NCBI GenBank assembly: GCA_934090935.1
Contig: CAKOKD010000001.1
Location: forward strand, 290,571-354,570
Length of the DNA stretch: 64,000 nt
Reading direction: 5' to 3'
Source: an uncultured Bacilli bacterium
GTDB lineage: Bacteria; Bacillota_I; Bacilli_A; RF39; UBA660
Below, one piece after another: positions 3,956 through 59,020 of this stretch (the first letter of the stretch is position 1; each line of letters opens with the position of its first letter). The notes under the pieces were generated by a model that was given only the letters and a program-made list of their open reading frames with translations, was not told where the DNA came from and ran no database searches. Position numbers and translations under genes: made by a program.

Positions 3956-4172
3956 TGTAAAGCAATTGATGAAGACGTTAAATAATGATTTTTTATAGAG
4001 AAGCTGTGGGTGGTGCAAACAGTTAAAAATAGTTATTTAAGAATCACTTCTAATGCGACTTAGGGATAAGCTAAGTACGTTTACTGCGTTAAAGTTAATA
4101 AAGTGTGAATTACATTCATAAAATAGGATGGTACCACGGACTTGTTCGTTCCTATGTTATGGATGTTTTTTT
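3956..4172 (+). promoter_or_regulatory. T-box riboswitch leader of ileS
   Basis: Conserved T-box sequence AAATAGGATGGTACCACGG at 4122-4139 followed by a U-run (4165-4172) before the ileS RBS. ileS is a classical T-box-regulated gene in Firmicutes. Stem I, specifier and terminator pairing were not resolved by eye. Confidence 0.6.
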
Positions 4173-7100: not shown

Positions 7101-7292
7101 AGTGGGTTAAATATTGAAGATAGAATTAAACTTTATTTCTATGGTGATGATGAAGTAAATGATGCTTTAATAATGTTTAAAGATTATGTTAAAGAAGAAA
7201 CATTAGCAGTAGTTTACGAAGAAAAAGAAAGTGGAGAAGTTGTGGATATCAACGGCCATGACGTTATAATATCAATAGAAAAGAGTGAATAA
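4191..7292 (+). CDS. ileS: isoleucyl-tRNA synthetase (long, type-2-like form)
   Basis: HIGH-like PGIHHVLAKT, KMSKSTGN, a zinc-knuckle CPRCG...CSCG, about 1030 aa. The track start at 4128 lies inside the leader; ATG 4191 (MKNFKELDK) with AAAGGAAA RBS is preferred. Confidence 0.93.
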   Translation: MKNFKELDKRKASEVEESILETWKKEDILNETIKNRKNGKNWVFYDGPIYANAKPGIHHVLAKTIKDSFCKYHTMKGERVLRKIGLDTHGLPIEVNVEKKLGFKTKADIEAFGVENFCRECNKATALNIDEINAVTDKMGQFIDCEHPYVTCSNEYIESEWWIIKEMDKKGLLYHGNKVLWYCPRCGTELSQNEVSQGYEETSVNTVIVPLKRVDADEYFLAWTTTPWTLMANVAICVNPELTYIKVLSQGYKFILASALASKVLGEDYEVLETYKGSDLVGIKYKQLMPFVHVEGKCHEVIADNYVTAEDGTGIVHIAPAYGEDDNRVCRENGIGFVNPVGLDGCYTEGPWKGTLVTDPNLEIEIIKWLKENDKLFKKIKIVHDYPHCWRCHSPLISYPKPAWYIKTTAYKDKIIEENKKINWYPDYVGNKRFANWLDNMIDWGISRNRYWGCPLPVWTCSCGNKCVVGSIDELQELVIEDVDVRKMELHRPYVDELHVKCDKCGKSMDRVKDVLDVWFDSGAMPYAQYHYPFENKELFESQFPADFIAEGLDQTRGWFYVLLVISTIISGESSFKNVVVNDMVLDGFGKKMSKSTGNIVDPINELDEYGADIVRWYMLSVSPVWTPLKYDSKGCREVHSKFFNPFKNTYTFFQTYANIDGIDTDECDVAYEDREEIDKWLLSKYNKLVKNVTDAYEAYDLNQVVKQITSFVSEDLSNWYIRRNRNRFWSSELDNSKKSVYITTYEVLIGLCGLCAPVIPYITEEIYKNLTGEKSVHLSDFPKYDENLINEEIEVKMDLVRDLISTGRYVREETKIKVRQPLSEALIDGKYESILGNLVSLINEELNVKKVTFVDDLSKYMNFTIKPNFKVCGSMFGSKMGLYSETLKNLSLDDEEALLKEETITVDFNGERLDITPEMVDVRIDAKEGFNVGMENNKFIILNTELTRDLLLEGLAREFVSKVQNMRKTSGLNIEDRIKLYFYGDDEVNDALIMFKDYVKEETLAVVYEEKESGEVVDINGHDVIISIEKSE

Positions 7293-7303
7293 CTCTTTTT
7301 TTT
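7279..7303 (+). terminator. intrinsic terminator of ileS (hairpin AGAGTGAATAACTCT plus T8), contiguous with the left end of cassette R1
   Basis: The inverted repeat spans the ileS stop codon and is followed by TTTTTTTT (7296-7303). Confidence 0.65.
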
Positions 7304-7345
7304 ATGCTTTCTAGGTTCTAATTTTGTCGACATTTGTCGGATTTA

Positions 7346-7373
7346 TTGACAATGAAAATTAACTATATATAAT
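7346..7373 (+). promoter_or_regulatory. consensus sigma-A promoter inside R1 (TTGACA-16-TATAAT), immediately preceded by the TGTCGACA palindrome
   Basis: TTGACA 7346-7351, TATAAT 7368-7373. TTGTCGACATTTGTCGG at 7324-7340 is a candidate operator. Confidence 0.6.
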
Positions 7374-7469
7374 ACAAACTCGAGAAGCAGAAAAAGATGC
7401 TTATCACTTCCAAACTAGAGGCTAAATTATTCGGGGTTTTGGTTAAGGAGTACGAGAGGAAGTGATACG

Positions 7470-7547
7470 ATGAAGAAGGATAATCAAATAAGATTACTTT
7501 ATCTAATCGTTTTTATATTGTTAATAGTAATTCTAAAATTATTATAG
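7470..7547 (+). CDS. small hydrophobic peptide (25 aa, MKKDNQIRLLYLIVFILLIVILKLL), candidate type I toxin
   Basis: ATG preceded by GAGGAAGTGATACG. The SD region GGAAGTGATA is complementary to upstream TATCACTTCC, predicting SD sequestration. ORF conserved in all three R copies. Confidence 0.5.
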   Translation: MKKDNQIRLLYLIVFILLIVILKLL

Positions 7548-7551
7548 CAAC

Positions 7552-7640
7552 AAAAAAAAGCATCTTTATTCTACTGAATAAGGATGCTACACCCATAAGT
7601 GGTAAGCATCAGCCTCAAAAGAAACTTCTGCTTCTCACTA
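7552..7640 (-). ncRNA. putative antisense sRNA (antitoxin candidate) convergent to the small ORF
   Basis: On the minus strand a TATATT -10 sits about 7 nt upstream of GTGAGAAGCAG, with a -35-like TTACAT 17 nt further up. The transcript would end at hairpin GCATCCTTATTCAGTAGAATAAAGATGC plus U8. The + strand has an A-run before this hairpin and no U-run after it, so it terminates minus-strand transcription only. Confidence 0.4.
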
Positions 7641-7750
7641 AATTAAATATAGCATAATCAAAATAAAATGTAAATATTTACACATAATAGTATTGTTATA
7701 CCGAATAAAAAATTAATCTATGGTACAATTAAAATAGAATGGTGTGTATT

Positions 7751-9061
7751 ATGAAGAGAAAGAGTGCATTAGTATTTACAATTTTATTATTAGCGGTGGG
7801 ATTTGCTGCCGTGTCAACAACTTTAGTAATAAATGGGTCTGCAAAAGTAAGTGAAAATACAGAGGATTTTTCTGTAATATTTACCAAGGCTTCATTAGAT
7901 GGAACAGATGTATATGCAAATATAGTTGATGATACTAAAAAGATAATAAATTTTTCAACAAATGAATTAAAGACAATAAATCAAACAAGTGTGTTAAATT
8001 ATGAAGTAACAAATAATTCAAGCAATTATGATGCTGAAGTTCAAGTAACTTGTAAATTAAAAGATGGTGGGTCTGCTAAATATACAAGTATCAAAAATGA
8101 ACTAGAAGGAAATGCAACAATTGTAAAAGCCAAAGAAAGCTTAAATGGAACATTAACAGTTAACTTAAAAAAAACTGCTACAGAAGAAGTAAATGAACAA
8201 TATGTTTGTGAACTAACGTTTAATGCAGTAGAGAGAACTCAGTTGGGAAATAATCCAGCTATTGATAAGCTAATATCTTTAGCTAATTCTGAGGAAATAA
8301 ATTCATATGAAAATGGAAATAAAAATCAATTATATGTTTTTAATCATGAGCAAACTAAACAAACAGAAGCCCTAAGCGACTATCGTTTTATTGGCGATAA
8401 TCCATATAATTATATAAAGTTTAGTGGTGAAACATGGAGAATATTAGGTATCTTTGATATTGATGGAGAAAAAAAGATTAAAATAATAAAAAATGATACT
8501 TTGGATAGTTCATACGCTTGGGATACTAACGGAAAAAATAATTTTATAATTTCAAGTTTAAATAATTATTTAAATGAAAATTATTATGAAACTTTGGATA
8601 AAAATTATATATCAAAAACAAAAATCTACTTAGGTGGAACTGATATGATGCAATATGTAAAGGCAAATGAATGGTATAGTCATGAAAGAAGTAATAAAGT
8701 GTATTCTGGAAACCCAAGTTATTATAATGACGCATATGTTTCTTTAATGTATCCATCGGATTTTGCTTATACTTATGCCTATGGAATTGACAATGAGTGT
8801 TTTAATAATGGATTTGGATGTGATGTTTCATCAGGAAGAACTAATAGTTGGATGTATATTGGTAAAAATATGGAAGCATTTATAACTCCTGATTCAAGTT
8901 CAAGTAATCAAATTTATAGAATGAATTCTTCCAGTGGTTATAATAAAAGTACATCTTCAACTTTAATGTATATAAGACCAGTTGTATATTTAAATAGCAA
9001 TGTGAAATTTATTTCAGGAGATGGATCAAGCACAAATCCTTATAAATTAGATACAAATTAG
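7751..9061 (+). CDS. secreted family member A: conserved N-terminal module plus lectin-like C-terminal domain
   Basis: Probable start MKRKSALVFTILLLAVGFAAV (the track's 7739 start adds MVCI). N-module is highly similar to the 14603 and 56406 genes (FSVIFTKASLDG.DVY..VDDTKKII.F......QTSVLNYEVTNNSSNYDAEV.VTC...YVCELTFNAVER). C-terminus ...WMYIG...YIRPVVYL...GSSTNPYKLDTN. Own promoter with extended -10 TGGTACAAT; no poly-G. Confidence 0.8.
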   Translation: MKRKSALVFTILLLAVGFAAVSTTLVINGSAKVSENTEDFSVIFTKASLDGTDVYANIVDDTKKIINFSTNELKTINQTSVLNYEVTNNSSNYDAEVQVTCKLKDGGSAKYTSIKNELEGNATIVKAKESLNGTLTVNLKKTATEEVNEQYVCELTFNAVERTQLGNNPAIDKLISLANSEEINSYENGNKNQLYVFNHEQTKQTEALSDYRFIGDNPYNYIKFSGETWRILGIFDIDGEKKIKIIKNDTLDSSYAWDTNGKNNFIISSLNNYLNENYYETLDKNYISKTKIYLGGTDMMQYVKANEWYSHERSNKVYSGNPSYYNDAYVSLMYPSDFAYTYAYGIDNECFNNGFGCDVSSGRTNSWMYIGKNMEAFITPDSSSSNQIYRMNSSSGYNKSTSSTLMYIRPVVYLNSNVKFISGDGSSTNPYKLDTN

Positions 9062-9097
9062 ATGAAACTAAAAAAGAATAATATATTAAAAAAACAC

Positions 9098-9125
9098 ATG
9101 ATTTCATGTGTTTTTTTTAATGTAT
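9098..9125 (+). terminator. intrinsic terminator after gene A
   Basis: AAACACATGATTTCATGTGTTT hairpin followed by a T-run. Confidence 0.65.
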
Positions 9126-9206
9126 TTTAATTTGCAAAAAGTTGTATAAAATAATTTGCAAAATTAAAAAAATTTTTTTCAAAGTAGTAATTTTCAACAA
9201 AAGAAA

Positions 9207-9240
9207 TTGACAATCGGGGGGGGTATTATAAAATAAAAAT
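9207..9240 (+). promoter_or_regulatory. family promoter with a G8 homopolymer in the spacer (TTGACA-atc-G8-TATTATAAAATA)
   Basis: G-run at 9216-9223 between a -35-like TTGACA (9207-9212) and an A/T-rich -10 region. Same architecture at 14547, 34011 and 56354. Confidence 0.6.
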
Positions 9241-9257
9241 AGATGAGGTGTGTTTAA

Positions 9258-10019
9258 ATGAAGAAAAGTGCAATAATAGTTGTAATTGTTTTTATGATGA
9301 TTGGATTTGCAGCAGTAAGTACGTCATTAATAATAAATAGTAATATAAAAGTATCAAAGAATGAAACGGACTTTGATGTATATTTTTCAAAGGCAAGATT
9401 GGATACAAAAGATGTATATGAAAGTGTAATAAGTCAAGATAAAAAGACAATAATATTTAATACAAATAATTTAAGTAAAGTAGGAGATAAACAGTACTAA
9501 CATATGAAGTAACAAATAATTCAAACAACAAGGAACTTCATTAAAACAAAATGGTACATATACAAGAATGTATGATACTGAGATTGGATATTTAGCAAGT
9601 ACATCAAGAAATATAAGTGGAATATATGATATGTCCGGTGGAGCACATGAATATATGTCAGTATATACCTTAGATAACTCTGATAATAGTGGAATAACTT
9701 TTACAAATTATGGCTCAAAGTATTATGATGTTTATAATGAATCGAGTATGACAACCAGTTACCAATGTAGAATATTAGGAGATGCAACGGAGAAATGGGG
9801 CCATTTACAACTTTGAAATCAATTGAAAGCAATAGCAGTATAAAAAGATATGTATCAAGTCGGTTTGCATCCTATGCATATTTTGTTTCCTCTTCAAGTC
9901 CATTTTTTGCACGCGGTGGTGATTATGGGCATGGTATATTTGCTGGGCAACTTTATTTTGGTGGTGCTTCTGGAGAAGCATATAGCTATGTTGGTTTTCG
10001 TCTAGTTTTAACACCTTAA
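9258..10019 (+). pseudogene. chimeric, frameshifted family pseudogene D (N-module of the 56406 type fused to the C-terminal region of the 57608 type)
   Basis: 9258-9500 encodes MKKSAIIVVIVFMMIGFAAVSTSLIIN... then stops. TYEVTNNSNN follows out of frame. 9568-10019 in two frames matches the C-terminus of the 57608 protein (TENISGVYDMSGG.HEY...YQ.RILGDAT...GFRLVLTP). Confidence 0.8.
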
Positions 10020-10030
10020 TAAAGGATGTT

Positions 10031-10061
10031 TCAATAGAAAAGAGTGAATAACTCTTTTTTT
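10031..10061 (+). repeat. 31-bp exact direct duplicate of the ileS 3' end and terminator (7272-7302)
   Basis: TCAATAGAAAAGAGTGAATAACTCTTTTTTT occurs at 7272-7302 and again at 10031-10061, bracketing R1 + gene A + pseudogene D. Confidence 0.85.
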
Positions 10062-10105
10062 CATGTATAAATGATGCTATAATAATAATAGAATAGAGGG
10101 TAATT

Positions 10106-14422: not shown

Positions 14423-14546
14423 TTTAAATTTATTGAATAAGAATACTAAATAAACTCAAGTAGCAAGCATAAGTTAAAAAATATTTTGTTTCTCTTGATA
14501 AACCAAAATATAAAATGCAAAAAAAGTGTAAACAAGGAAGTTTTGC

Positions 14547-14582
14547 TTGAAAATCGGGGGGGGGTATTATAAAATAAAAAAG
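14547..14582 (+). promoter_or_regulatory. family promoter with a G9 homopolymer (TTGAAA-atc-G9-TATTATAAAATA)
   Basis: G-run at 14556-14564. Confidence 0.6.
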
Positions 14583-14602: not shown

Positions 14603-16114
14603 ATGAAAAAGAAGAGTATGCTTATAGTAGCAATTATATTAATGTCAATTGGATTTGCTAGCATTTCAACGACATTAATAATAAACGGGAATGCAAACGT
14701 AAGTGAAAATCAAGATGACTTTTCAGTTATCTTTACAGCTGCAACATTAGATGGAAAGGATGTATATTCATCAGTAGTAGATGATACAAAGAAGATAATA
14801 ACATTTGAAACATCAGAATTAAAAACATTAAATCAAACATCAGTATTAAATTATGAAGTAACAAATAATTCAAGCAACTATGATGCAAATGTAAATGTAA
14901 CATGTGTACCAAAGGAAGGAACAATAGCAAAATATACAAGCATCAAAAATAAATTAGAAAACGAAGCAACAGTTGTAAAAGCAAAAAGTTCAGTAAATGG
15001 AACATTAACAGTAACACTAGATAAGGTAGCAACTGAAGCAGTTACAGAAGAATATACATGTAAGTTAGAATTTAATGCAGTCGAAAGAACTGAAATTGCA
15101 GTAGGAACAACTAATTTATATAATTTAATAAAAAATAATGCTGATACTAAAACCGTAATAGATTATAAGGTACGTTCAGGAGTAAGTGGAACAAATGGAA
15201 TATATACAACAACTGCTACTGAAGGTAATGTACCAGTATATTATTATAGAGGAGCAGCTGATAAAGTAAATAATAATATAATATTTAATAATATGTGTTG
15301 GAAGATAATAAGAACAACTGAAAACAATGGAGTAAAACTAATATATAACGGAACACCAACAGATGGCAAATGTGAAACTCAAACAGGAGAAGCAACTCAA
15401 ATAGGAACAAGTGCATTTAATACAAATTATACCGATAATGCATATGTTGGCTATATGTATGGAACAGCAGGAAGCAACACCTATGCAGCAACTCATGCAA
15501 ATACAAATGACTCAACAATAAAAACATATATAGATAATTGGTATAAAGCTAATTTTGATGAAATAACAACATCAAAATTGGAAGATACAGTATTCTGTAA
15601 TGATAGAAGTACAAAAGCATATGATGCAAAGACAATTGGAGAAACTTCCTTTTCATCCTTTGGTTCATTAGGATATGGGAAAAGTGCATCATTGTATGGA
15701 GCAGCACATCGAGCATCATATTGGTCGAACAATCCAAATCCAAGTTTAGTGTGTCAAAATCAAAATGATAAATTTACCGTAGATAGTAAAAATGGAAACG
15801 GAAAACTAACATATCCAGTTGGATTAATAACATTAGATGAGGTAGTGCTTGCAGGATTTAATACAAAATATTCCAATACAGGTGATTATGATGATGTAAC
15901 AAATTACTTATATACAAATAGCATTTATTGGACATTCTCCCCTGTGATGCTGGATGCTCGTGGTTATGCTTGTGTTGGTTATGTCTATAGTGCTGGCTAT
16001 GTGCACTATGACTATGTGGGCGGTGCTCGTGGGGTCCGTCCAGTAGTTTCGCTTATCAGTGGCACACTTGTAACTGGTTCTGGTACAACAACTAACCCAT
16101 ATGTGGTTGAATAA
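14603..16114 (+). CDS. secreted family member B: conserved N-module plus longer lectin-like C-terminal domain
   Basis: MKKKSMLIVAIILMSIGFASISTTLIINGNANVSEN...VTCVPK...YTCKLEFNAVER. C-terminus ...WKIIRTTENNGVKLIYNG...LITLDEVVLAG...YWTFSPV...GVRPVVSLISG...GTTTNPYVVE. Confidence 0.85.
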   Translation: MKKKSMLIVAIILMSIGFASISTTLIINGNANVSENQDDFSVIFTAATLDGKDVYSSVVDDTKKIITFETSELKTLNQTSVLNYEVTNNSSNYDANVNVTCVPKEGTIAKYTSIKNKLENEATVVKAKSSVNGTLTVTLDKVATEAVTEEYTCKLEFNAVERTEIAVGTTNLYNLIKNNADTKTVIDYKVRSGVSGTNGIYTTTATEGNVPVYYYRGAADKVNNNIIFNNMCWKIIRTTENNGVKLIYNGTPTDGKCETQTGEATQIGTSAFNTNYTDNAYVGYMYGTAGSNTYAATHANTNDSTIKTYIDNWYKANFDEITTSKLEDTVFCNDRSTKAYDAKTIGETSFSSFGSLGYGKSASLYGAAHRASYWSNNPNPSLVCQNQNDKFTVDSKNGNGKLTYPVGLITLDEVVLAGFNTKYSNTGDYDDVTNYLYTNSIYWTFSPVMLDARGYACVGYVYSAGYVHYDYVGGARGVRPVVSLISGTLVTGSGTTTNPYVVE

Positions 16115-23185: not shown

Positions 23186-24478
23186 ATGCTAAAGTATTTT
23201 AAAGAATTGGAAAATAAAGAGAATCAATATTTAGAATTAATTGAGTGGAACACAAAAAGATATTATGTTATAGGTGAAAATAATCTTCCTTTTTCTTTTT
23301 ATCAAAAGTATGCTTCAATGTTTGAGCAAATAAGAAATTTGGATTTGCTTTGTCAAAAAAGTATAGATTCTGACAAAAAAGTGCTATTTTGGGATAACGA
23401 AATGGATAATCGTCAAGAGATATTTTTAAGTGAGTTAATTGCTAAATTTTTAAATGGTCAGGATACTAGTGGATACAATTTAACTGATGCGGGTAGAGAA
23501 AGACTGGACATTTTAATGCTTCTTTTTAAAAAGGAATATCCGACTTATAATTTTGAAGATATAGAAGAATACGTTTCCGCGGTTTTTGAATTATTTATAG
23601 CAGATTCTTATTTATTTTTTTATAATGATCATGATGAAAAGAAAATAACTAAGAGATTTCTTTCTGCAGTTTTAATAGTGGCAAGATATCAAAAAAAATT
23701 AACTAAAGGGTTAGAAAATAAAATAAACCAAGCTTTAGAAGAAATGCCAGAACTTGTTGTTAAAATTCCTTTAAAGCAATTTAATCCTGTTAATTTTTCT
23801 TTACCGAATTGTTGGTTTATTACTCCTGACGGTCGATTATATAATTCTCTTGGACCGCAAGCACACAAAGAATGTAATCTAATTTATCCTTATAGACGTG
23901 TAATCAGAAATCAAGAATTACCAAGAGCAAGTGATATAAAAAAGCAAATAAGTGCTATAGAAGAATCTGGATTTATAACTTATGAAGAGTTTGAAATGTA
24001 CTTAAATTTAATTTATGATTTCCCTACAGTGTATACCCCTGAATATTATACGTTGGATAATTCACAAAAAATGTGGTATAACCATATTGAAAAACGTAGC
24101 TATAATCCTAAAATTAGATCTGTAGTAATTGGCGTTCTGAGTGCTCAAGCTAATTTTTATAGTTTTTTTGAAGAATTAAAAACATATTCGACTGATTATG
24201 AAAGAGATCTTAAATATGTTATGTCTCTTGATTTTGACGAATTGTTAGTTAGATGTTGTGGTTTTCATAAAGTTTTATCTATTCCAGAAGAATTTTATCC
24301 GATTAAAACTATTGTTACTAGTGTAATAAATTATGAAGAAGTTTTCAGAGAATACATTGAAAAAGGTTGGAAAATAAATTTTGTTCCCCCAATAGTACTA
24401 AATAAAGAACTCGGTAAATTAGAAGAATATCCAGAAGAATTTTTAACTATAAGAAAAGTTTTGAAAAGTGATAAGTAA
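23186..24478 (+). CDS. hypothetical cytoplasmic protein, 430 aa
   Basis: AGGAAAG RBS; no recognised motif. Confidence 0.45.
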   Translation: MLKYFKELENKENQYLELIEWNTKRYYVIGENNLPFSFYQKYASMFEQIRNLDLLCQKSIDSDKKVLFWDNEMDNRQEIFLSELIAKFLNGQDTSGYNLTDAGRERLDILMLLFKKEYPTYNFEDIEEYVSAVFELFIADSYLFFYNDHDEKKITKRFLSAVLIVARYQKKLTKGLENKINQALEEMPELVVKIPLKQFNPVNFSLPNCWFITPDGRLYNSLGPQAHKECNLIYPYRRVIRNQELPRASDIKKQISAIEESGFITYEEFEMYLNLIYDFPTVYTPEYYTLDNSQKMWYNHIEKRSYNPKIRSVVIGVLSAQANFYSFFEELKTYSTDYERDLKYVMSLDFDELLVRCCGFHKVLSIPEEFYPIKTIVTSVINYEEVFREYIEKGWKINFVPPIVLNKELGKLEEYPEEFLTIRKVLKSDK

Positions 24479-24698
24479 ATTTATAACAATATAAATTAAA
24501 ATGACTATAATTAAGAGTGTATAACTCTTTTTTTTGTATTTTAGGTTCTAATTTTGTCGACATTTGTCGAGTTTGTTGACAAGAAAAATTAACTATATAT
24601 AATAACCAATTGAGAAGCAGAGAAAGATGCTTATCACTTCCAACTAGAGGCTAAATATTCAGGGTTTTGGTTAAAGGAGTACTAGAGGAAGTGATACG

Positions 24699-24776
24699 AT
24701 GAAAAAAGATAATCATATAAGATTACTTTACTTAATCGTTTTAATATTGCTAGTAATAATTTTAAAATTATTATAG
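24699..24776 (+). CDS. small hydrophobic peptide (25 aa, MKKDNHIRLLYLIVLILLVIILKLL), candidate type I toxin, copy 2
   Basis: Same RBS-sequestering arrangement as R1. Confidence 0.5.
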   Translation: MKKDNHIRLLYLIVLILLVIILKLL

Positions 24777-24863
24777 GAAAAAAAGCATCTTTATTCTACT
24801 GAATAAGGATGCTACAACAAACACGTGGTAAGCATCGGCCTCAAAAGGAACTTTTGCTTCTCA
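24777..24863 (-). ncRNA. putative antisense sRNA, copy 2
   Basis: Minus-strand TTGAAA-17-TATATT upstream of GTGAGAAGCAAAAG; ends at the conserved hairpin plus U-run. Confidence 0.4.
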
Positions 24864-24917
24864 CTAAATAAAATATAACATTTTTTAAAAGTGTTTTCAA
24901 TATATAAGGTAATAATT

Positions 24918-24982
24918 ATGCTTATAGTAGCAATATTACTAATGAAGATGGAACAAGTACAAATCCATATGTAGTTTTATAA
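24918..24982 (+). pseudogene. ghost of a family gene: start fragment MLIVAILLM fused to the C-terminal remnant DGTSTNPYVVL*
   Basis: ATGCTTATAGTAGCAATATTACTAATG matches codons about 6-14 of the 14603-type gene. GATGGAACAAGTACAAATCCATATGTAGTTTTATAA in another frame matches the family C-terminal tail (GTTTNPYVVE). Confidence 0.7.
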
Positions 24983-25112
24983 TATAAAAAATATATTTAA
25001 TTTTTAAAATGAATTAAGAATAATTTAATTCATTTTTTTTGAAAATTTTAATTAAATAAAGACTTTTTGTAAGAAATTTGATACAATTTTTATAGATTTG
25101 AAGGTGTTAAAT

Positions 25113-26198
25113 ATGGATAAAATTATATTAACTGGAGATAGACCTACTGGTAGACTTCATATTGGCCATTATGTTGGCTCTTTAAAAAGAAGAGTTGAGC
25201 TTATGAATGATGGTGACTATGATAAGTTTTATATTGAGATCGCTGATGCTCAAGCATTAACCGATAACTATGATAATCCTGCTAAGATTAGAGAAAATGT
25301 TCTTGAAGTTGCGATTGATTATTTATCTTGTGGAATTGATCCAAATAAAGTAACGATATTTATTCAATCAGGAATTCCAGCACTATGTGAACTTACATTT
25401 TATTATATGAACTTGGTAAGTTTAACAAGATTAGAGAGAAACCCAACTGTTAAAAGTGAAATCAAAATGCGTAAGTTTGAAAGCATTCCAACAGGATTCT
25501 TAACTTATCCAATAAGTCAAGCTGCTGATATAACAGGTTTTGATGCAACAATTATACCTGTTGGTGAAGATCAACTTCCAATGATTGAACAAACTAGAGA
25601 AATAGTAAGAAGTTTTAATTCTATTTATGGAAAAACTTTATATGAACCAAGTGCTGTTTTACCAGAAAATGAAACTTGTAATAGACTTCCAGGTATAGAT
25701 GGTAAAGCAAAGATGAGTAAAAGTTTGGGTAATGCGATTTATATTTCTGATACCCCTGAAGTTATTAAAGAAAAAGTAATGAAGATGTATACTGATCCAA
25801 ATCATATAAATATAAGTGATCCAGGAAAAATTGAAGGAAATATGGTATTTACTTATCTAGATGCTTTTGCTAAAGATGATGACTTTTTGGAATATGCTTC
25901 TGAATATAAAAACTTAGATGAAATGAAGGATCATTATAGACGTGGTGGTTTAGGAGATGTTAAGATTAAAAAATTCTTAATAAATGTTTTAAATCGTGAA
26001 TTTGGTCCTATAAGAGAAAGACGTGCTTACTTTGAAAACCATATTGAAGAAGTAATTGAGATTTTAAAAAATGGTACGGAAAAAGCTAAGAATGATGCCG
26101 ATGAAGTGTTAACAAGAGTAAAAAAATCAATGGGTATTAATTATTTTGATGATGATACTTTTATTGATATCTATAAAGATAAATACAATAAAGAATAA
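25113..26198 (+). CDS. trpS: tryptophanyl-tRNA synthetase
   Basis: TGDRPTGRLHIGHYVG (HIGH) and KMSKSLGN; AAGGTG RBS before ATG 25113 (the track start at 25098 is TTG). Confidence 0.9.
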   Translation: MDKIILTGDRPTGRLHIGHYVGSLKRRVELMNDGDYDKFYIEIADAQALTDNYDNPAKIRENVLEVAIDYLSCGIDPNKVTIFIQSGIPALCELTFYYMNLVSLTRLERNPTVKSEIKMRKFESIPTGFLTYPISQAADITGFDATIIPVGEDQLPMIEQTREIVRSFNSIYGKTLYEPSAVLPENETCNRLPGIDGKAKMSKSLGNAIYISDTPEVIKEKVMKMYTDPNHINISDPGKIEGNMVFTYLDAFAKDDDFLEYASEYKNLDEMKDHYRRGGLGDVKIKKFLINVLNREFGPIRERRAYFENHIEEVIEILKNGTEKAKNDADEVLTRVKKSMGINYFDDDTFIDIYKDKYNKE

Positions 26199-33497: not shown

Positions 33498-33670
33498 GTG
33501 TTTTATTTTTTTAGGTTCTAATTTTGTCGACATTTGTCGGATTTATTGACAAGGTAAATAAAGTATATATAATACAAACTCGAGAAGCAGAAAAAGATGC
33601 TTATCACTTCCAAACTAGAGGCTAAATTATTCGGGGTTTTGGTTAAAGGAGTACGAGAGGAAGTGATACG

Positions 33671-33754
33671 ATGAAAAAAGATAATCATATAAGATTACTT
33701 TATCTAATCGTTTTTATATTGTTAATAATAATTTTAAAATTATTATGTCAATAA
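33671..33754 (+). CDS. small hydrophobic peptide (27 aa, MKKDNHIRLLYLIVFILLIIILKLLCQ), candidate type I toxin, copy 3
   Basis: Conserved ORF, RBS paired with the upstream TATCACTTCC. Confidence 0.5.
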   Translation: MKKDNHIRLLYLIVFILLIIILKLLCQ

Positions 33755-33838
33755 AAAAAGCATCTTTATTCTACTGAATAAGGATGCACCGCAAAATGTG
33801 GTAAGCATCAGCCTCAAAAGAAAACTTCTGCTTCTCAC
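33753..33838 (-). ncRNA. putative antisense sRNA, copy 3
   Basis: Minus-strand TTGTAA-17-TATATT then GTGAGAAGCAG; ends at the hairpin plus U7. Confidence 0.4.
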
Positions 33839-33895
33839 TAAAATAAATATAACATTTTTCAATATAAATTACAATGATAATAAATAAATACACTT

Positions 33896-34010
33896 TACGC
33901 ATAATAAAAATGAATATGCAAAATACAACGAAAATGTTGTATAATATAAGATATAATACAACTGCAAAATAAAACAGACGACAAAAGTTATGTAAAACAA
34001 GACAATGCCC
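33896..34010 (+). promoter_or_regulatory. conserved AT-rich leader shared with the 56241-56353 region (contains TGTTGTATAATAT, a possible second promoter)
   Basis: CATAATAAAAATGAATAT.CAAAA.ACA...AAAATGTTGTATAATATAAGA...GACGACAAAAGT.ATGTAAAACAA...AATGCCC is conserved between 33896-34010 and 56241-56353. Confidence 0.45.
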
Positions 34011-34045
34011 TTGAAAATCGGGGGGGGTATTATAAAATAAAAAAG
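34011..34045 (+). promoter_or_regulatory. family promoter with a G8 homopolymer (TTGAAA-atc-G8-TATTATAAAATA)
   Basis: G-run at 34020-34027. Confidence 0.6.
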
Positions 34046-56240: not shown

Positions 56241-56353
56241 CACATAATAAAAATGAATATACAAAACACAACTAAAATGTTGTATAATATAAGAAACAAT
56301 AGGAGAATAAAATAAAAAAGACGACAAAAGTAATGTAAAACAAAATAATGCCC
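56241..56353 (+). promoter_or_regulatory. conserved AT-rich leader (copy of the 33896-34010 region)
   Basis: See 33896 entry. Confidence 0.45.
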
Positions 56354-56388
56354 TTGAAAATCGGGGGGGGTATTATAAAATAAAAATA
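56354..56388 (+). promoter_or_regulatory. family promoter with a G8 homopolymer (TTGAAA-atc-G8-TATTATAAAATA)
   Basis: G-run at 56363-56370. Confidence 0.6.
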
Positions 56389-56405: not shown

Positions 56406-57599
56406 ATGAAGAAAAGGAGTGCAATAATAGTTGCAATTGTTTTTATGATGATTGGATTTGCAGCAGTAAGTACGTCATTGATAATAAATGGAAATGCTAA
56501 TGTTAGCGAAAGCAATGAAGATTATTCAGTAATATTTACTAAAGCTTCATTAGATGGAGAAGATGTGTATTCAACAGCAGTAGATGATACAAAAAAGATA
56601 ATTACATTTACAAGTAAGAATCTAATGAAAGTCGGAGACACATCAACACTTACATATGAAGTAACAAATAATTCAGCAAACTATGATGCAGAAGTGCGTG
56701 TTACATGTGTACCAAAAGACGGAACAACAACAAAATATACAAGTATCAAGAATGAACTTGAAGGAAATGCAACGAAGGTATTAGCAAAAGAAAGTATAAA
56801 TGGAACATTAACAATAACACTTTCAAAACAATCAATCGAAGAAGTGAGTGAAGAATATACATGTTCGTTAGAATTCAATGCAACTGAGAGAGATGAACTT
56901 GGAGAAAATATTCAAGATCCAGTATCATTTACAACAGATTCCTGGGAGACTATTCAAAAAGCAGTTAAAATAGGAAATACAAGTAAATATAATGTAGGGG
57001 ATACAAAAGAAATAAATTTAACTAATTTTGGAACACATACAGTGCGTATATCAAATATGAGTGCATGCACAAATGGAGAAACAAGTGAAACAGCATGTGG
57101 GTTTGTAGTAGAATTTGCAGATATAATAACAAAACATACATTTAATAATACATCAACAAATGTAGGAGGTTGGAAAAATTCAGAAATACGTACATATGTA
57201 AATGGAACAATATATAATTCTTTACCAAGTGAATTACAAAATGCTATCACTTCAACAAAGGTAATATCAGGACATGGAAGTACAAGTGGAGAGACAAATT
57301 TTGAAACACAAGACAAAGTATACCTAATATCATCAAAAGAATTATACGGAACAGCGACAGTCAAAGATACTTTAAGCACTGAAACAAAGCAATTGGATTA
57401 TTATAAAAATAAAGGAGTTACTTTATTAAAATACACTGAAGCTGTAAAAAAGTATAATCTACAAGACGTAAACTGGTGGCTTCGATCAGCAACTTCCGAT
57501 ACAACAGACTTCTTTCTTGACGTAGCAACAAAGGGAGTCTGGACAAACGGAGCTTCTACTGCATTAAATGGCATTTCTCCAGCATTTAGAATAGGATAG
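56406..57599 (+). CDS. secreted family member C: conserved N-module plus lectin-like C-domain ending ...WWLRSATSD...GISPAFRIG
   Basis: TGAGGTG RBS 8 nt before ATG 56406 (the track's 56397 start is GTG). N-module is close to the 9258 pseudogene N-terminus. Confidence 0.85.
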   Translation: MKKRSAIIVAIVFMMIGFAAVSTSLIINGNANVSESNEDYSVIFTKASLDGEDVYSTAVDDTKKIITFTSKNLMKVGDTSTLTYEVTNNSANYDAEVRVTCVPKDGTTTKYTSIKNELEGNATKVLAKESINGTLTITLSKQSIEEVSEEYTCSLEFNATERDELGENIQDPVSFTTDSWETIQKAVKIGNTSKYNVGDTKEINLTNFGTHTVRISNMSACTNGETSETACGFVVEFADIITKHTFNNTSTNVGGWKNSEIRTYVNGTIYNSLPSELQNAITSTKVISGHGSTSGETNFETQDKVYLISSKELYGTATVKDTLSTETKQLDYYKNKGVTLLKYTEAVKKYNLQDVNWWLRSATSDTTDFFLDVATKGVWTNGASTALNGISPAFRIG

Positions 57600-57607
57600 T
57601 GATTAGT

Positions 57608-59020
57608 ATGAAGAGAAATAAAATAATAACATTAATTCTTGTAATATTTGTATTCGGAATATCAGTAGCATATGCAGCAGATATAATATTAAGTGAAGAA
57701 GTATATTTTGATAATAAAAATTCAAATTTGAGTTCAACAAATGTACAAGATGCAATAGATGAAATAAATGAAAAAGTATTGTTAACAAAATCATGTTCAA
57801 GTGATGTAGAAGAACCAAAAGTAAGTGATGGATTAATACCAGTAACTATAGCAAATGATGGAACAGTAACATATGCCGATACAAGTAAGAGATGGTATGA
57901 CTATTGTAATAAAGTTTGGGCAAATGCAGTAATACTTGAAGATGGTGTAAGTTATAATGTAGGAGATACAATAAAAGAAGATGATATTCAAAGTTATTTT
58001 GTATGGATACCAAAATACAAGTACAAACTTTGGAATGTAGATACACCAATAGAAAAAACACACGAAATAGATATAATATTTGATGCAAAGGATACAATAG
58101 ATGTAGAAGGAGTATCATGTAAAACACCGATGACAAGTGGAGATTCAGGAAACTGTAAAAATGGAGAATATATGACACATCCAGCATTTGTAAGTATGGG
58201 AGTGAATGGATTCTGGGTAGGAAAGTTTGAAACTGGATATAAAGGAGCGACAAACGTTTCTTCTGGTCGAGTAAATTCAAGGGATACAAGTAAAGTAATA
58301 ATAAAACCAAATGTATATAGTTGGAGAGGCATAACTGTATATAATGCATTTAGTGCAAGTTATAATTATAACCGAGAAATGAATTCACACATGATAAAAA
58401 ATACCGAGTGGGGAGCAGTTGCATATTTAAGTCACTCAAAATATGGAATAAGTAAAAAAATAAACATTAATAATAACAGTTCCTTTAAAACAGGATATTC
58501 AGCTCTTTTATCAACAAGTCAACATATATATCCTGGAGATTATGGGGATGGCGCAAGTTATAATTCTTTCTATAATACAAATGTAGGTTATAAAGCAAGT
58601 ACAACGGAAAATATAAGTGGTGTATATGATATGTCTGGTGGAACTCATGAGTACACTGCTTCATATGTAAATGGAAAACCAGGTACAAGTGGATTTACAA
58701 CTGCAACAATTGCAAACAGTGATTCAAAATATTTTGATATATATAATGCATCTTCTTCAGTTACATCTTATCAATATAGAATATTAGGAGATGCAACTGG
58801 TGAATTAGGACCATTTAAACGATATGTAGATGCAGATAATACCTCTAGAGGTCATAATGGTTGGTATGGCGAACATTCTGATTTCATTGATTCTTCTTAT
58901 CCTTGGTTCATTCGTGGAGGTTATTATTGCTATGGAGTGCTTGCAAGTCAATTTTATTTTAATAGGTATACTGGAGCTGTTGATTTAAACATTGGTTTCC
59001 GTATAGTTTTAGCTCCATAA
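57608..59020 (+). CDS. secreted protein E, co-transcribed with C: Sec signal peptide (VAYA/AD), unique N-region, lectin-like C-region ending GFRIVLAP
   Basis: Starts 9 nt after the stop of C. Its C-terminal 150 aa are the template of the 9568-10019 pseudogene segment. Motifs HPAF...GFWVGKFE, EWGAVAYL, PWFIRGGYYCYG. Confidence 0.8.
   Translation: MKRNKIITLILVIFVFGISVAYAADIILSEEVYFDNKNSNLSSTNVQDAIDEINEKVLLTKSCSSDVEEPKVSDGLIPVTIANDGTVTYADTSKRWYDYCNKVWANAVILEDGVSYNVGDTIKEDDIQSYFVWIPKYKYKLWNVDTPIEKTHEIDIIFDAKDTIDVEGVSCKTPMTSGDSGNCKNGEYMTHPAFVSMGVNGFWVGKFETGYKGATNVSSGRVNSRDTSKVIIKPNVYSWRGITVYNAFSASYNYNREMNSHMIKNTEWGAVAYLSHSKYGISKKININNNSSFKTGYSALLSTSQHIYPGDYGDGASYNSFYNTNVGYKASTTENISGVYDMSGGTHEYTASYVNGKPGTSGFTTATIANSDSKYFDIYNASSSVTSYQYRILGDATGELGPFKRYVDADNTSRGHNGWYGEHSDFIDSSYPWFIRGGYYCYGVLASQFYFNRYTGAVDLNIGFRIVLAP

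Follow-up and report, generated by a model that had tools for sequence, protein, structure and literature searches.

A probable relic of a hypervariable surface-protein gene between a type I toxin-antitoxin-like cassette and trpS in an uncultured Bacilli bacterium

Positions 24904-24982 of the window, i.e. of the whole 64,000-nt stretch of DNA that was analysed, are with a probability of about 0.9 a non-functional relic of a hypervariable surface-protein family member that lay next to trpS. Both extreme ends of the lost gene, a fragment of its leader and the end of its C-terminal tail, are still recognizable and follow each other in different reading frames, as the earlier note on this DNA had reported. 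The remnant is a pseudogene relic and not a family member gene, an ordinary kind of object, and it is presumably not expressed. Intact genes are found at the same position in other assemblies, and a short direct repeat is present at the junction of the two pieces.

The two gene ends and the family they come from

The features of the locus are as follows.

23186-24478, plus strand: open reading frame of a 430-aa protein, the upstream neighbour, polymorphic among strains
24538-24903, plus strand: cassette R2, type I toxin-antitoxin-like, intact, about 365 nt
24904-24917, plus strand: 14 nt (ATAAGGTAATAATT), possibly a remnant of a ribosome-binding region, with a weak likeness to paralogues
24918-24944, plus strand: remnant of the leader, MLIVAILLM, corresponding to codons 6-14 of the lost gene (ATGCTTATAGTAGCAATATTACTAATG)
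24939-24946, plus strand: deletion junction, composed of CTAATG (24939-24944), A24945 and A24946; the relic reads TTACTAATGAAGATGG
24946-24995, plus strand: block of 50 nt without a mismatch to the 3′ end and 3′-UTR of the intact L013 orthologue, delimited by exact-match extension
24947-24982, plus strand: C-terminal tail fragment, DGTSTNPYVVL and a TAA stop (GATGGAACAAGTACAAATCCATATGTAGTTTTATAA), in a frame that differs from that of the leader fragment
25006-25040, plus strand: retained terminator hairpin of the lost gene (ATGAATTAA...TTAATTCAT and a T-run), read from the sequence
25113-26198, plus strand: trpS (PF00579), the downstream neighbour and synteny anchor

In proteins of this family a hydrophobic leader at the N-terminus precedes a conserved N-domain; the subtype discussed here also has a DUF6273-like C-terminal domain, which ends with GDGTSTNPYVV-x. 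Genes of this leader/DUF6273 type start at 7739, 14603, 34066 and 56397 of the window. A homology search with the 14603 protein retrieved more than 7000 relatives, and each of the best 120 formed a 90% cluster of its own. The commonest leader, MK[RK]KSMLIVAILLMSI, occurs in 64 of the best 120 homologues and agrees exactly with the peptide of the relic; most of these 120 end with ..NGDGTSTNPYVV-x. Comparison of the family with NCBIfam, Pfam and PDB sequences yielded only weak or borderline matches to DUF6273. The family alleles are mosaic.

Several further properties of the family were observed in the window. The promoter spacers contain a poly-G tract of eight or nine residues (TTGA[AC]A-ATC-Gn-TATTA-TAAAAT, at 9205-9241, 14546-14582, 34009-34045 and 56352-56388), the length of which varies among copies and strains, a layout that is expected for phase variation by slipped-strand mispairing. 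A decayed family member at 9258-10020 has retained its leader and first 80 codons intact, followed by frame-shifted fragments that are related to the gene at 57599-59020. The most variable stretch of the protein extends from YWTFSP to GVRPVVSL (about 15950-16080 of the window and the homologues, alignment columns 440-480). DUF6273 is mentioned in passages of papers on targets of diversity-generating retroelements; a search of the window for a repeat of the variable C-terminal region, which could represent a template of such an element, was negative.

Examples of phase-variable surface proteins whose promoter spacer contains a homopolymeric tract are Vlp of Mycoplasma hyorhinis (vlp) and the opc product of Neisseria. 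The parent family resembles these systems in its many paralogues, its very high allelic diversity and the G8/G9 tract between TTGA(A/C)A and TAAAAT, a likeness of sequence layout only. In contrast, the relic has no tract and would be permanently off rather than phase-off, and the family protein is unrelated to the known ones and has a DUF6273-like C-terminal domain.

The head piece ATGCTTATAGTAGCAATATTACTAATG agrees at 24 of 27 nt (3 mismatches) with 14618-14644 in the leader of the 503-aa gene at 14603, the only other place in the window that matches it with three or fewer mismatches; none of 100 shuffled sequences reached this value. Leaders of real alleles outside the window are closer still. 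The agreement is 26/27 nt for L014, and 24917-24945, i.e. the head piece with one flanking base on each side, is identical over all 29 nt to a leader in L015, L016 and L017, where the respective paralogue is located at another locus. Codons 6-14 are thereby covered at 27/27 nt, while codons 1-5 and the GFA motif are absent. The peptide had been given as MLIVAIILM in the earlier note; the actual translation, MLIVAILLM, differs at one residue.

The first bases of the head and tail pieces are 29 nt apart, and just 2 nt lie between the end of the former and the start of the latter. The tail piece reproduces the last 11 codons and the stop codon of P0063, the intact gene of L013, without a mismatch and lies within the 50-nt block of identity, the flanks of which are only about 90.6% identical. 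The family tail, its stop codon and the terminator have thus all been retained, and a hairpin that matches 25006-25040 is found in the same place after the intact genes of L002, L013 and L018. A single open reading frame with an N-domain and a DUF6273-like C-terminal domain is lacking, the two ends being in different frames. Neither a poly-G tract nor any family coding sequence or open reading frame was detected between the cassette and trpS (24904-25112), and 24904-24918 in particular is devoid of a G-run. The 14 nt in front of the leader fragment were compared with the ribosome-binding regions AGGTATAAT-ATG at 14603 and AGGGAAATAAT-ATG in L115; the alignment scores fall within the range of shuffled sequences, and these nucleotides are possibly a weakly recognizable leftover of a ribosome-binding region.

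Intact alleles at the trpS locus and the course of the loss

Public assemblies were searched with the exact TrpS protein sequence to obtain contigs of the same species. The 634-nt intergenic region of the relic type was found with 100% identity in L001, L003, L005, L006-L008 and L121-L123. L002 and L004 have an intact 499-aa gene immediately 5′ of trpS, ending with ...GSGTTTNPYVVL, and their flanks are 97-98.5% identical to the window (from 24992 onward, the identity to L002 is 98.5% across 9.5 kb). In L013 the intact 504-aa gene P0063 lies between the gene for the 430-aa protein and trpS; it ends with GDGTSTNPYVVL and is the only homologue with this end among the best 120 of more than 7000. 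L018, the GTDB species representative (an uncultured Bacilli MAG from Hadza samples), also contains an intact 504-aa gene, which ends with ..GDGTSSNPYVVL. An identical TrpS protein sequence adjoins relic alleles and intact alleles alike. These intact syntenic genes of 499-504 aa in four assemblies bear out the view of the earlier note that a gene of this family left the two pieces behind. The L002 and L018 alleles exceed the Pfam cut-off for DUF6273 and are preceded by a poly-G tract.

All intact alleles at the trpS locus share the end NPYVVL with the relic, while paralogues elsewhere end with K, Q, E or other residues. The last codon of the relic and its 3′-UTR are thus specific for the locus, which argues for decay in place. 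The leader of the intact L002 allele is of another type (MKKSAIIVVIVFMM), and therefore the leader fragment may have been acquired by recombination with a paralogue and not by vertical descent at this locus. We did not find an allele from before the deletion, in which an R2-type cassette would be combined with a gene that has both the MLIVAILLM leader and the NPYVVL tail; every contig retrieved with trpS, the aminotransferase gene or the gene of the 165-aa neighbour had either the relic or the L002-type configuration.

The region upstream of the cassette also differs between strains. The gene for the 430-aa protein is present in the window, L001, L003, L006-L013 and L018, and is absent from L002, in which the aminotransferase gene and the cassette are separated by a 33-nt tandem repeat and a terminator instead. 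Comparisons of the 430-aa protein with NCBIfam, Pfam and PDB sequences gave no match to a family above threshold. A tRNA scan yielded no tRNA, and Rfam searches (gathering thresholds, and permissive E-values for 24400-25120) revealed neither a T-box nor a known sRNA at the locus, only sub-threshold noise. As a side observation, trpS has no T-box leader at 24992-25112; the only T-box of the window above threshold is at 3957-4156.

The sequence at the junction can be compared with alleles on both sides of the break (marked ^). Leader alleles read ..TTACTAATG^AGTAT, in codons ..TTA CTA ATG AGT ATA GG, and the tail alleles of L014 and L013 read ..TC(T/C)AATG^GAGATGG, in codons TC(T/C) AAT GGA GAT GGA AC; the relic has TTA CTA ATG AAG ATG GAA C. 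The direct repeat shared at the break is AATG, extended to CTAATG in L014, a short direct repeat of the kind that the earlier note had proposed to look for. The repeat is in a different codon phase at the two sites (CTA ATG versus (T)CT AAT G), which results in the frame offset of 1 nt. A24945 differs from the G of the known tails, and a simple repeat-mediated deletion leaves this base unaccounted for.

The BLAST alignment to L013 is colinear up to 24534 and again from 24941 onward. The internal loss amounts to about 1.43 kb (1512 nt minus 15, 27 and 39 nt), and the loss of about 1.4 kb of coding sequence and of the poly-G promoter in the earlier note agrees with this value and with the absence of a poly-G tract. 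Similarity to the cassette-bearing intact L002 allele stops at 24903, and only 14 nt (24904-24917) separate the cassette flank from the leader fragment. With L002 as a measure, the missing 5′ part comprises the poly-G promoter and 5′-UTR of about 90 nt and 15 nt for codons 1-5. One clean internal deletion, as had been proposed, is therefore not sufficient: the missing promoter, 5′-UTR and codons 1-5 constitute a gap of their own, apart from the internal one.

The ancestor would have had a gene of ~1.5 kb at this position, with a leader of the MK[RK]KSMLIVAILLM type and a tail and 3′-UTR similar to those of L013. One deletion of ~1.43 kb would then have fused leader codon 14 to the 13th-last codon at the AATG/CTAATG repeat, most likely by replication slippage or illegitimate recombination, and would have thrown the tail out of frame. 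The poly-G promoter, the 5′-UTR and codons 1-5 (about 90-100 nt) would have been removed by a separate loss. Still in place are the terminator of the lost gene, trpS together with the region in front of it, and the type I toxin-antitoxin-like cassette. Since the pre-deletion allele was not found, we infer the number and order of these events, and the mechanism is likewise a probable one.

Similar collapses were sought by a leader-motif scan of about 1.2 Mb of related sequence, an approach that detects only relics that have kept the leader, and two further collapsed genes were found, in L112 and L013. At L112:10305-10406 an in-frame open reading frame of 33 codons, MKKKSAIIIAIILMSIGFAS^NSLGISPAFRIA, follows an intact promoter region 3′ of a cassette at 9828; in L108 the same upstream context is followed by an intact gene of 398 aa. 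At L013:1202-1453, just upstream of ezrA, residues 1-22 are fused in frame to roughly the last 60 residues to give 83 aa.

Bacterial pseudogene relics reportedly result from a deletional bias, a view attributed to work of Mira, Ochman and Moran from 2001. The present relic is similar in that a once-intact gene has been cut to its short ends, with microhomology of a short repeat and intact orthologues in sister strains. It differs from such pseudogenes in that both extreme ends, 9 leader codons and 12-13 tail codons, have been kept, and in that the head-to-tail pattern recurs at two other family loci (L112 and L013).

The upstream cassette and its relation to the gene

Cassette R2 is intact, in accordance with the earlier note. 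Its features and its other copies are:

24576-24603, plus strand: promoter of R2, a perfect TTGACA-16-TATAAT (promoter scan)
24699-24776, plus strand: hydrophobic open reading frame of 25 codons, encoding MKKDNHIRLLYLIVLILLVIILKLL
24785-24812: hairpin, followed by a T-run on the minus strand only
24900-24872, minus strand: predicted convergent promoter of consensus level, reading into the hairpin and the T-run
7308-7680: another copy of the cassette in the window
33508-33880: another copy of the cassette, three in all

An example of sequence specific for R2 is TTGACAAGAAAAATTAACTATATATAATAACCAATTGAG. The R2 mRNA is predicted to fold with a minimum free energy of −77.5 kcal/mol (z = −7.0) and with long-range pairing of its 5′ and 3′ parts, and a segment CACTTCC is complementary to the Shine-Dalgarno region GGAAGTG, so that R2 has the 5′-3′ pairing and the predicted sequestered ribosome-binding site of the structured mRNAs of type I toxin-antitoxin systems. 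In each of 18 copies the long-range helices are preserved, though double changes are few. The peptides encoded by the small open reading frame of all full-length copies (25-31 codons) combine a hydrophobic core with a basic N-terminus, and the frame stays open in diverged variants, including MFKKSFKQDVLNV.. and MFKKSFKTDVLIV...

In Firmicutes, type I toxin-antitoxin loci that overlap at their 3′ ends include txpA/RatA, bsrG/SR4 and Fst/par. The cassette resembles these loci in its short hydrophobic open reading frame after a consensus promoter, in a Shine-Dalgarno sequence that could be sequestered by an upstream complementary segment, in its long-range 5′-3′ pairing and in the predicted convergent antisense promoter directed into a hairpin and T-run. 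In contrast to the described loci, its peptides have no match to a Pfam toxin family, and the comparison with Rfam gave no RNA family near the gathering score. Its location, usually but not always upstream of a surface-protein gene, is a further peculiarity. These features fit a predicted 3′-overlapping type I toxin-antitoxin module that is undescribed.

A metagenome scan revealed 23 further cassette stretches (L098-L120) in at least 10 upstream contexts, always 10-25 nt past a terminator. A scan of a genome collection with the 20-mer AGAGGAAGTGATACGATGAA, a block that was later seen to vary among copies, gave 0 matches, as did scans of viral contigs with each of two cassette blocks, and a sign of a phage origin was not obtained. 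In L110:6159-6270 and L119:1353-1460 the similarity is confined to the first 70-110 nt of the cassette, and other sequence follows. This shared part consists of a GGTTCTAATTTTGTCGACATTTGTCG direct-repeat operator-like motif and the promoter, apparently a promoter module that has been reused. A near-identical terminator, (A)AGAGTG(A/T)ATAACTCTTTTTTT, is present at 7264-7310, 10023-10069 and 24496-24542 of the window and in L098, L101, L107, L109, L111 and L115; at 7264-10069 it bounds a module of R1 and two family genes on both sides. The arrangement hints at duplication or exchange of modules by recombination at the shared terminator.

The combination of cassette and gene is variable. Downstream of cassettes, an intact family gene was found in six contexts, and a second relic in L112. 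Cassettes without a family gene occur in L098, L109 and L114, where they abut the convergent clpP, and only a relic follows R2 of the window and the cassette of L112. The orphan cassette (L109:1775-2160, also in L098 and L114) has a variant small open reading frame, MFKKSFKQDVLNVIFITIIFILLIIILKLL, and abuts the 3′ end of clpP. Conversely, family genes without a cassette are common (14603 and 56397 of the window, L013, L014, L015 and L018). Since each occurs separately, the gene is probably not the cargo of the cassette, as which it had been regarded in the earlier note; the cassette appears to be an autonomous unit and not a carrier of the family gene, the two being neighbours by habit.

At the trpS locus itself, the family gene is present and the cassette is absent in L013 and L018, and R2 is only 88.5% identical to the L002 cassette at the same locus, compared with 97-98.5% for the flanks; judging from these sequence comparisons, the locus is a mosaic. 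The persistence of the cassette next to the relic had also been taken as a sign of an addiction-type or selfish module. The relic-bearing contigs do not differ at a single position of the 634-nt intergenic region, which indicates a recent event in a clonal lineage, and the survival of the cassette is thus uninformative and no evidence of addiction in this case. On its left side the loss extends to within 3 nt of the −35 hexamer of the predicted antisense promoter, which is suggestive, as this would be expected if deletions that remove the antitoxin promoter were lethal.

Alternative readings and the meaning of the relic

In AT-rich DNA (the G+C content of the window is 27.5%) short matches are common, and the two pieces could in principle be chance similarities, or the ends of two paralogues that were fused during metagenome assembly. 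Local alignment against the ends of family genes gave scores of 41 for the head and 53 for the tail, compared with maxima of 31 and 28 in 300 shuffles, and no shuffled sequence in either series (100 or 300) reached the observed values. This is in line with the earlier note, which had considered chance matches unlikely. When 24901-24995 was compared with the whole window by sensitive blastn, the best non-self match was the 14603 leader (E = 6e-5), followed by that to the tail of the gene at 7739-9061 (E = 0.003); the order of the two hits is correct, and the exact matches of 29 nt and 50 nt hit intact genes in the right order and at the syntenic position. At least six independent contigs share the relic sequence with 100% identity; they derive from different studies and were built by different assemblers (SPAdes, MEGAHIT, scaffold and Logan assemblies), and their agreement excludes an assembly artefact at a junction of 4-6 nt. 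This length is also far below the k-mer length of any assembler. Chance and artefact were rejected on these grounds, and we regard their probability as negligible. Only slightly more credible is a 5′ truncation that left just a 3′-terminal fragment, with the leader likeness of 24918-24944 being a coincidence that stems from the pre-tail sequence ..SLISGTLV... The last 71 nt of the 14603 gene can indeed be aligned with 24913-24982 at 66% identity (E = 0.004 with relaxed scoring). However, 24917-24945 is exact over 29 nt to leader alleles and only about 55-65% identical to the pre-tail, and colinear homology to the intact L013 gene begins only at 24941, and a pure 3′ fragment was rejected on the basis of the 29-nt match and this colinearity.

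The remaining alternatives accept both ends and differ in their history or role. The locus could have been formed in one step by homology-facilitated illegitimate recombination, in which an imported segment composed of terminator, R2-type cassette, promoter and leader replaced the first ~1.47 kb of the resident gene. The left anchor would have been the shared AGAGTGxATAACTCT terminator and the right illegitimate join CTAATG, and the cassette would have arrived simultaneously. Compatible with such an import are the combination of the gene for the 430-aa protein with a cassette-free family gene in L013 and L018, the near-identical terminator before the cassettes of L101, L107, L111 and L115 and at 7264-7310 of the window, the R2-like cassette of L115 followed by a leader containing ..GCAATATTACTAATGAGT, and the low identity of R2 to the L002 cassette. 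It would nevertheless require at least one further deletion, because the poly-G promoter and codons 1-5 of the donor are absent, and cassette and intact gene coexist in L002, whose flank CATTTTTTAAAAGTGTTTTCAATAT is common to R2; on balance we consider it rather unlikely. That the relic has been kept as something useful, either as an expressed mini-ORF (MLIVAILLMKMEQVQIHM, with AAGG in front of it at 24906-24909) or as an empty acceptor whose conserved head and tail would let a paralogue be copied in by gene conversion, is very unlikely. Leader-to-tail collapse at three loci, two of them in frame, the mosaic family alleles and the failure to find a plus-strand terminator between the strong cassette promoter and the relic would favour a use, but the relic is out of frame and without a promoter of its own, its homology arms span merely 27-50 nt, all copies are clonal, so that no conservation signal can be read from them, and a search probed with leaders could find only relics that retain one. 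A broader scheme, in which collapse is a recurrent and favoured off-switch, relics, with the two most conserved ends retained, are acceptors that can be refilled by gene conversion from paralogues, and the antisense promoter of the cassette limits the deletions that are tolerated because its loss is lethal, is speculative and in our opinion improbable.

Decay of the trpS-adjacent gene to a non-functional relic is therefore the preferred reading. By itself the relic is of little import, and its value is that of a marker: it documents the loss of one variable surface-protein member in a widely sampled clonal lineage of an uncultured human-gut Bacilli species, and it marks the trpS locus as a hotspot of recombination and indels, with at least three configurations among close relatives. 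The poly-G-controlled hypervariable family and the undescribed cassette are the more interesting objects, and the collapsed genes indicate that internal deletions at short repeats have inactivated members of this family again and again.
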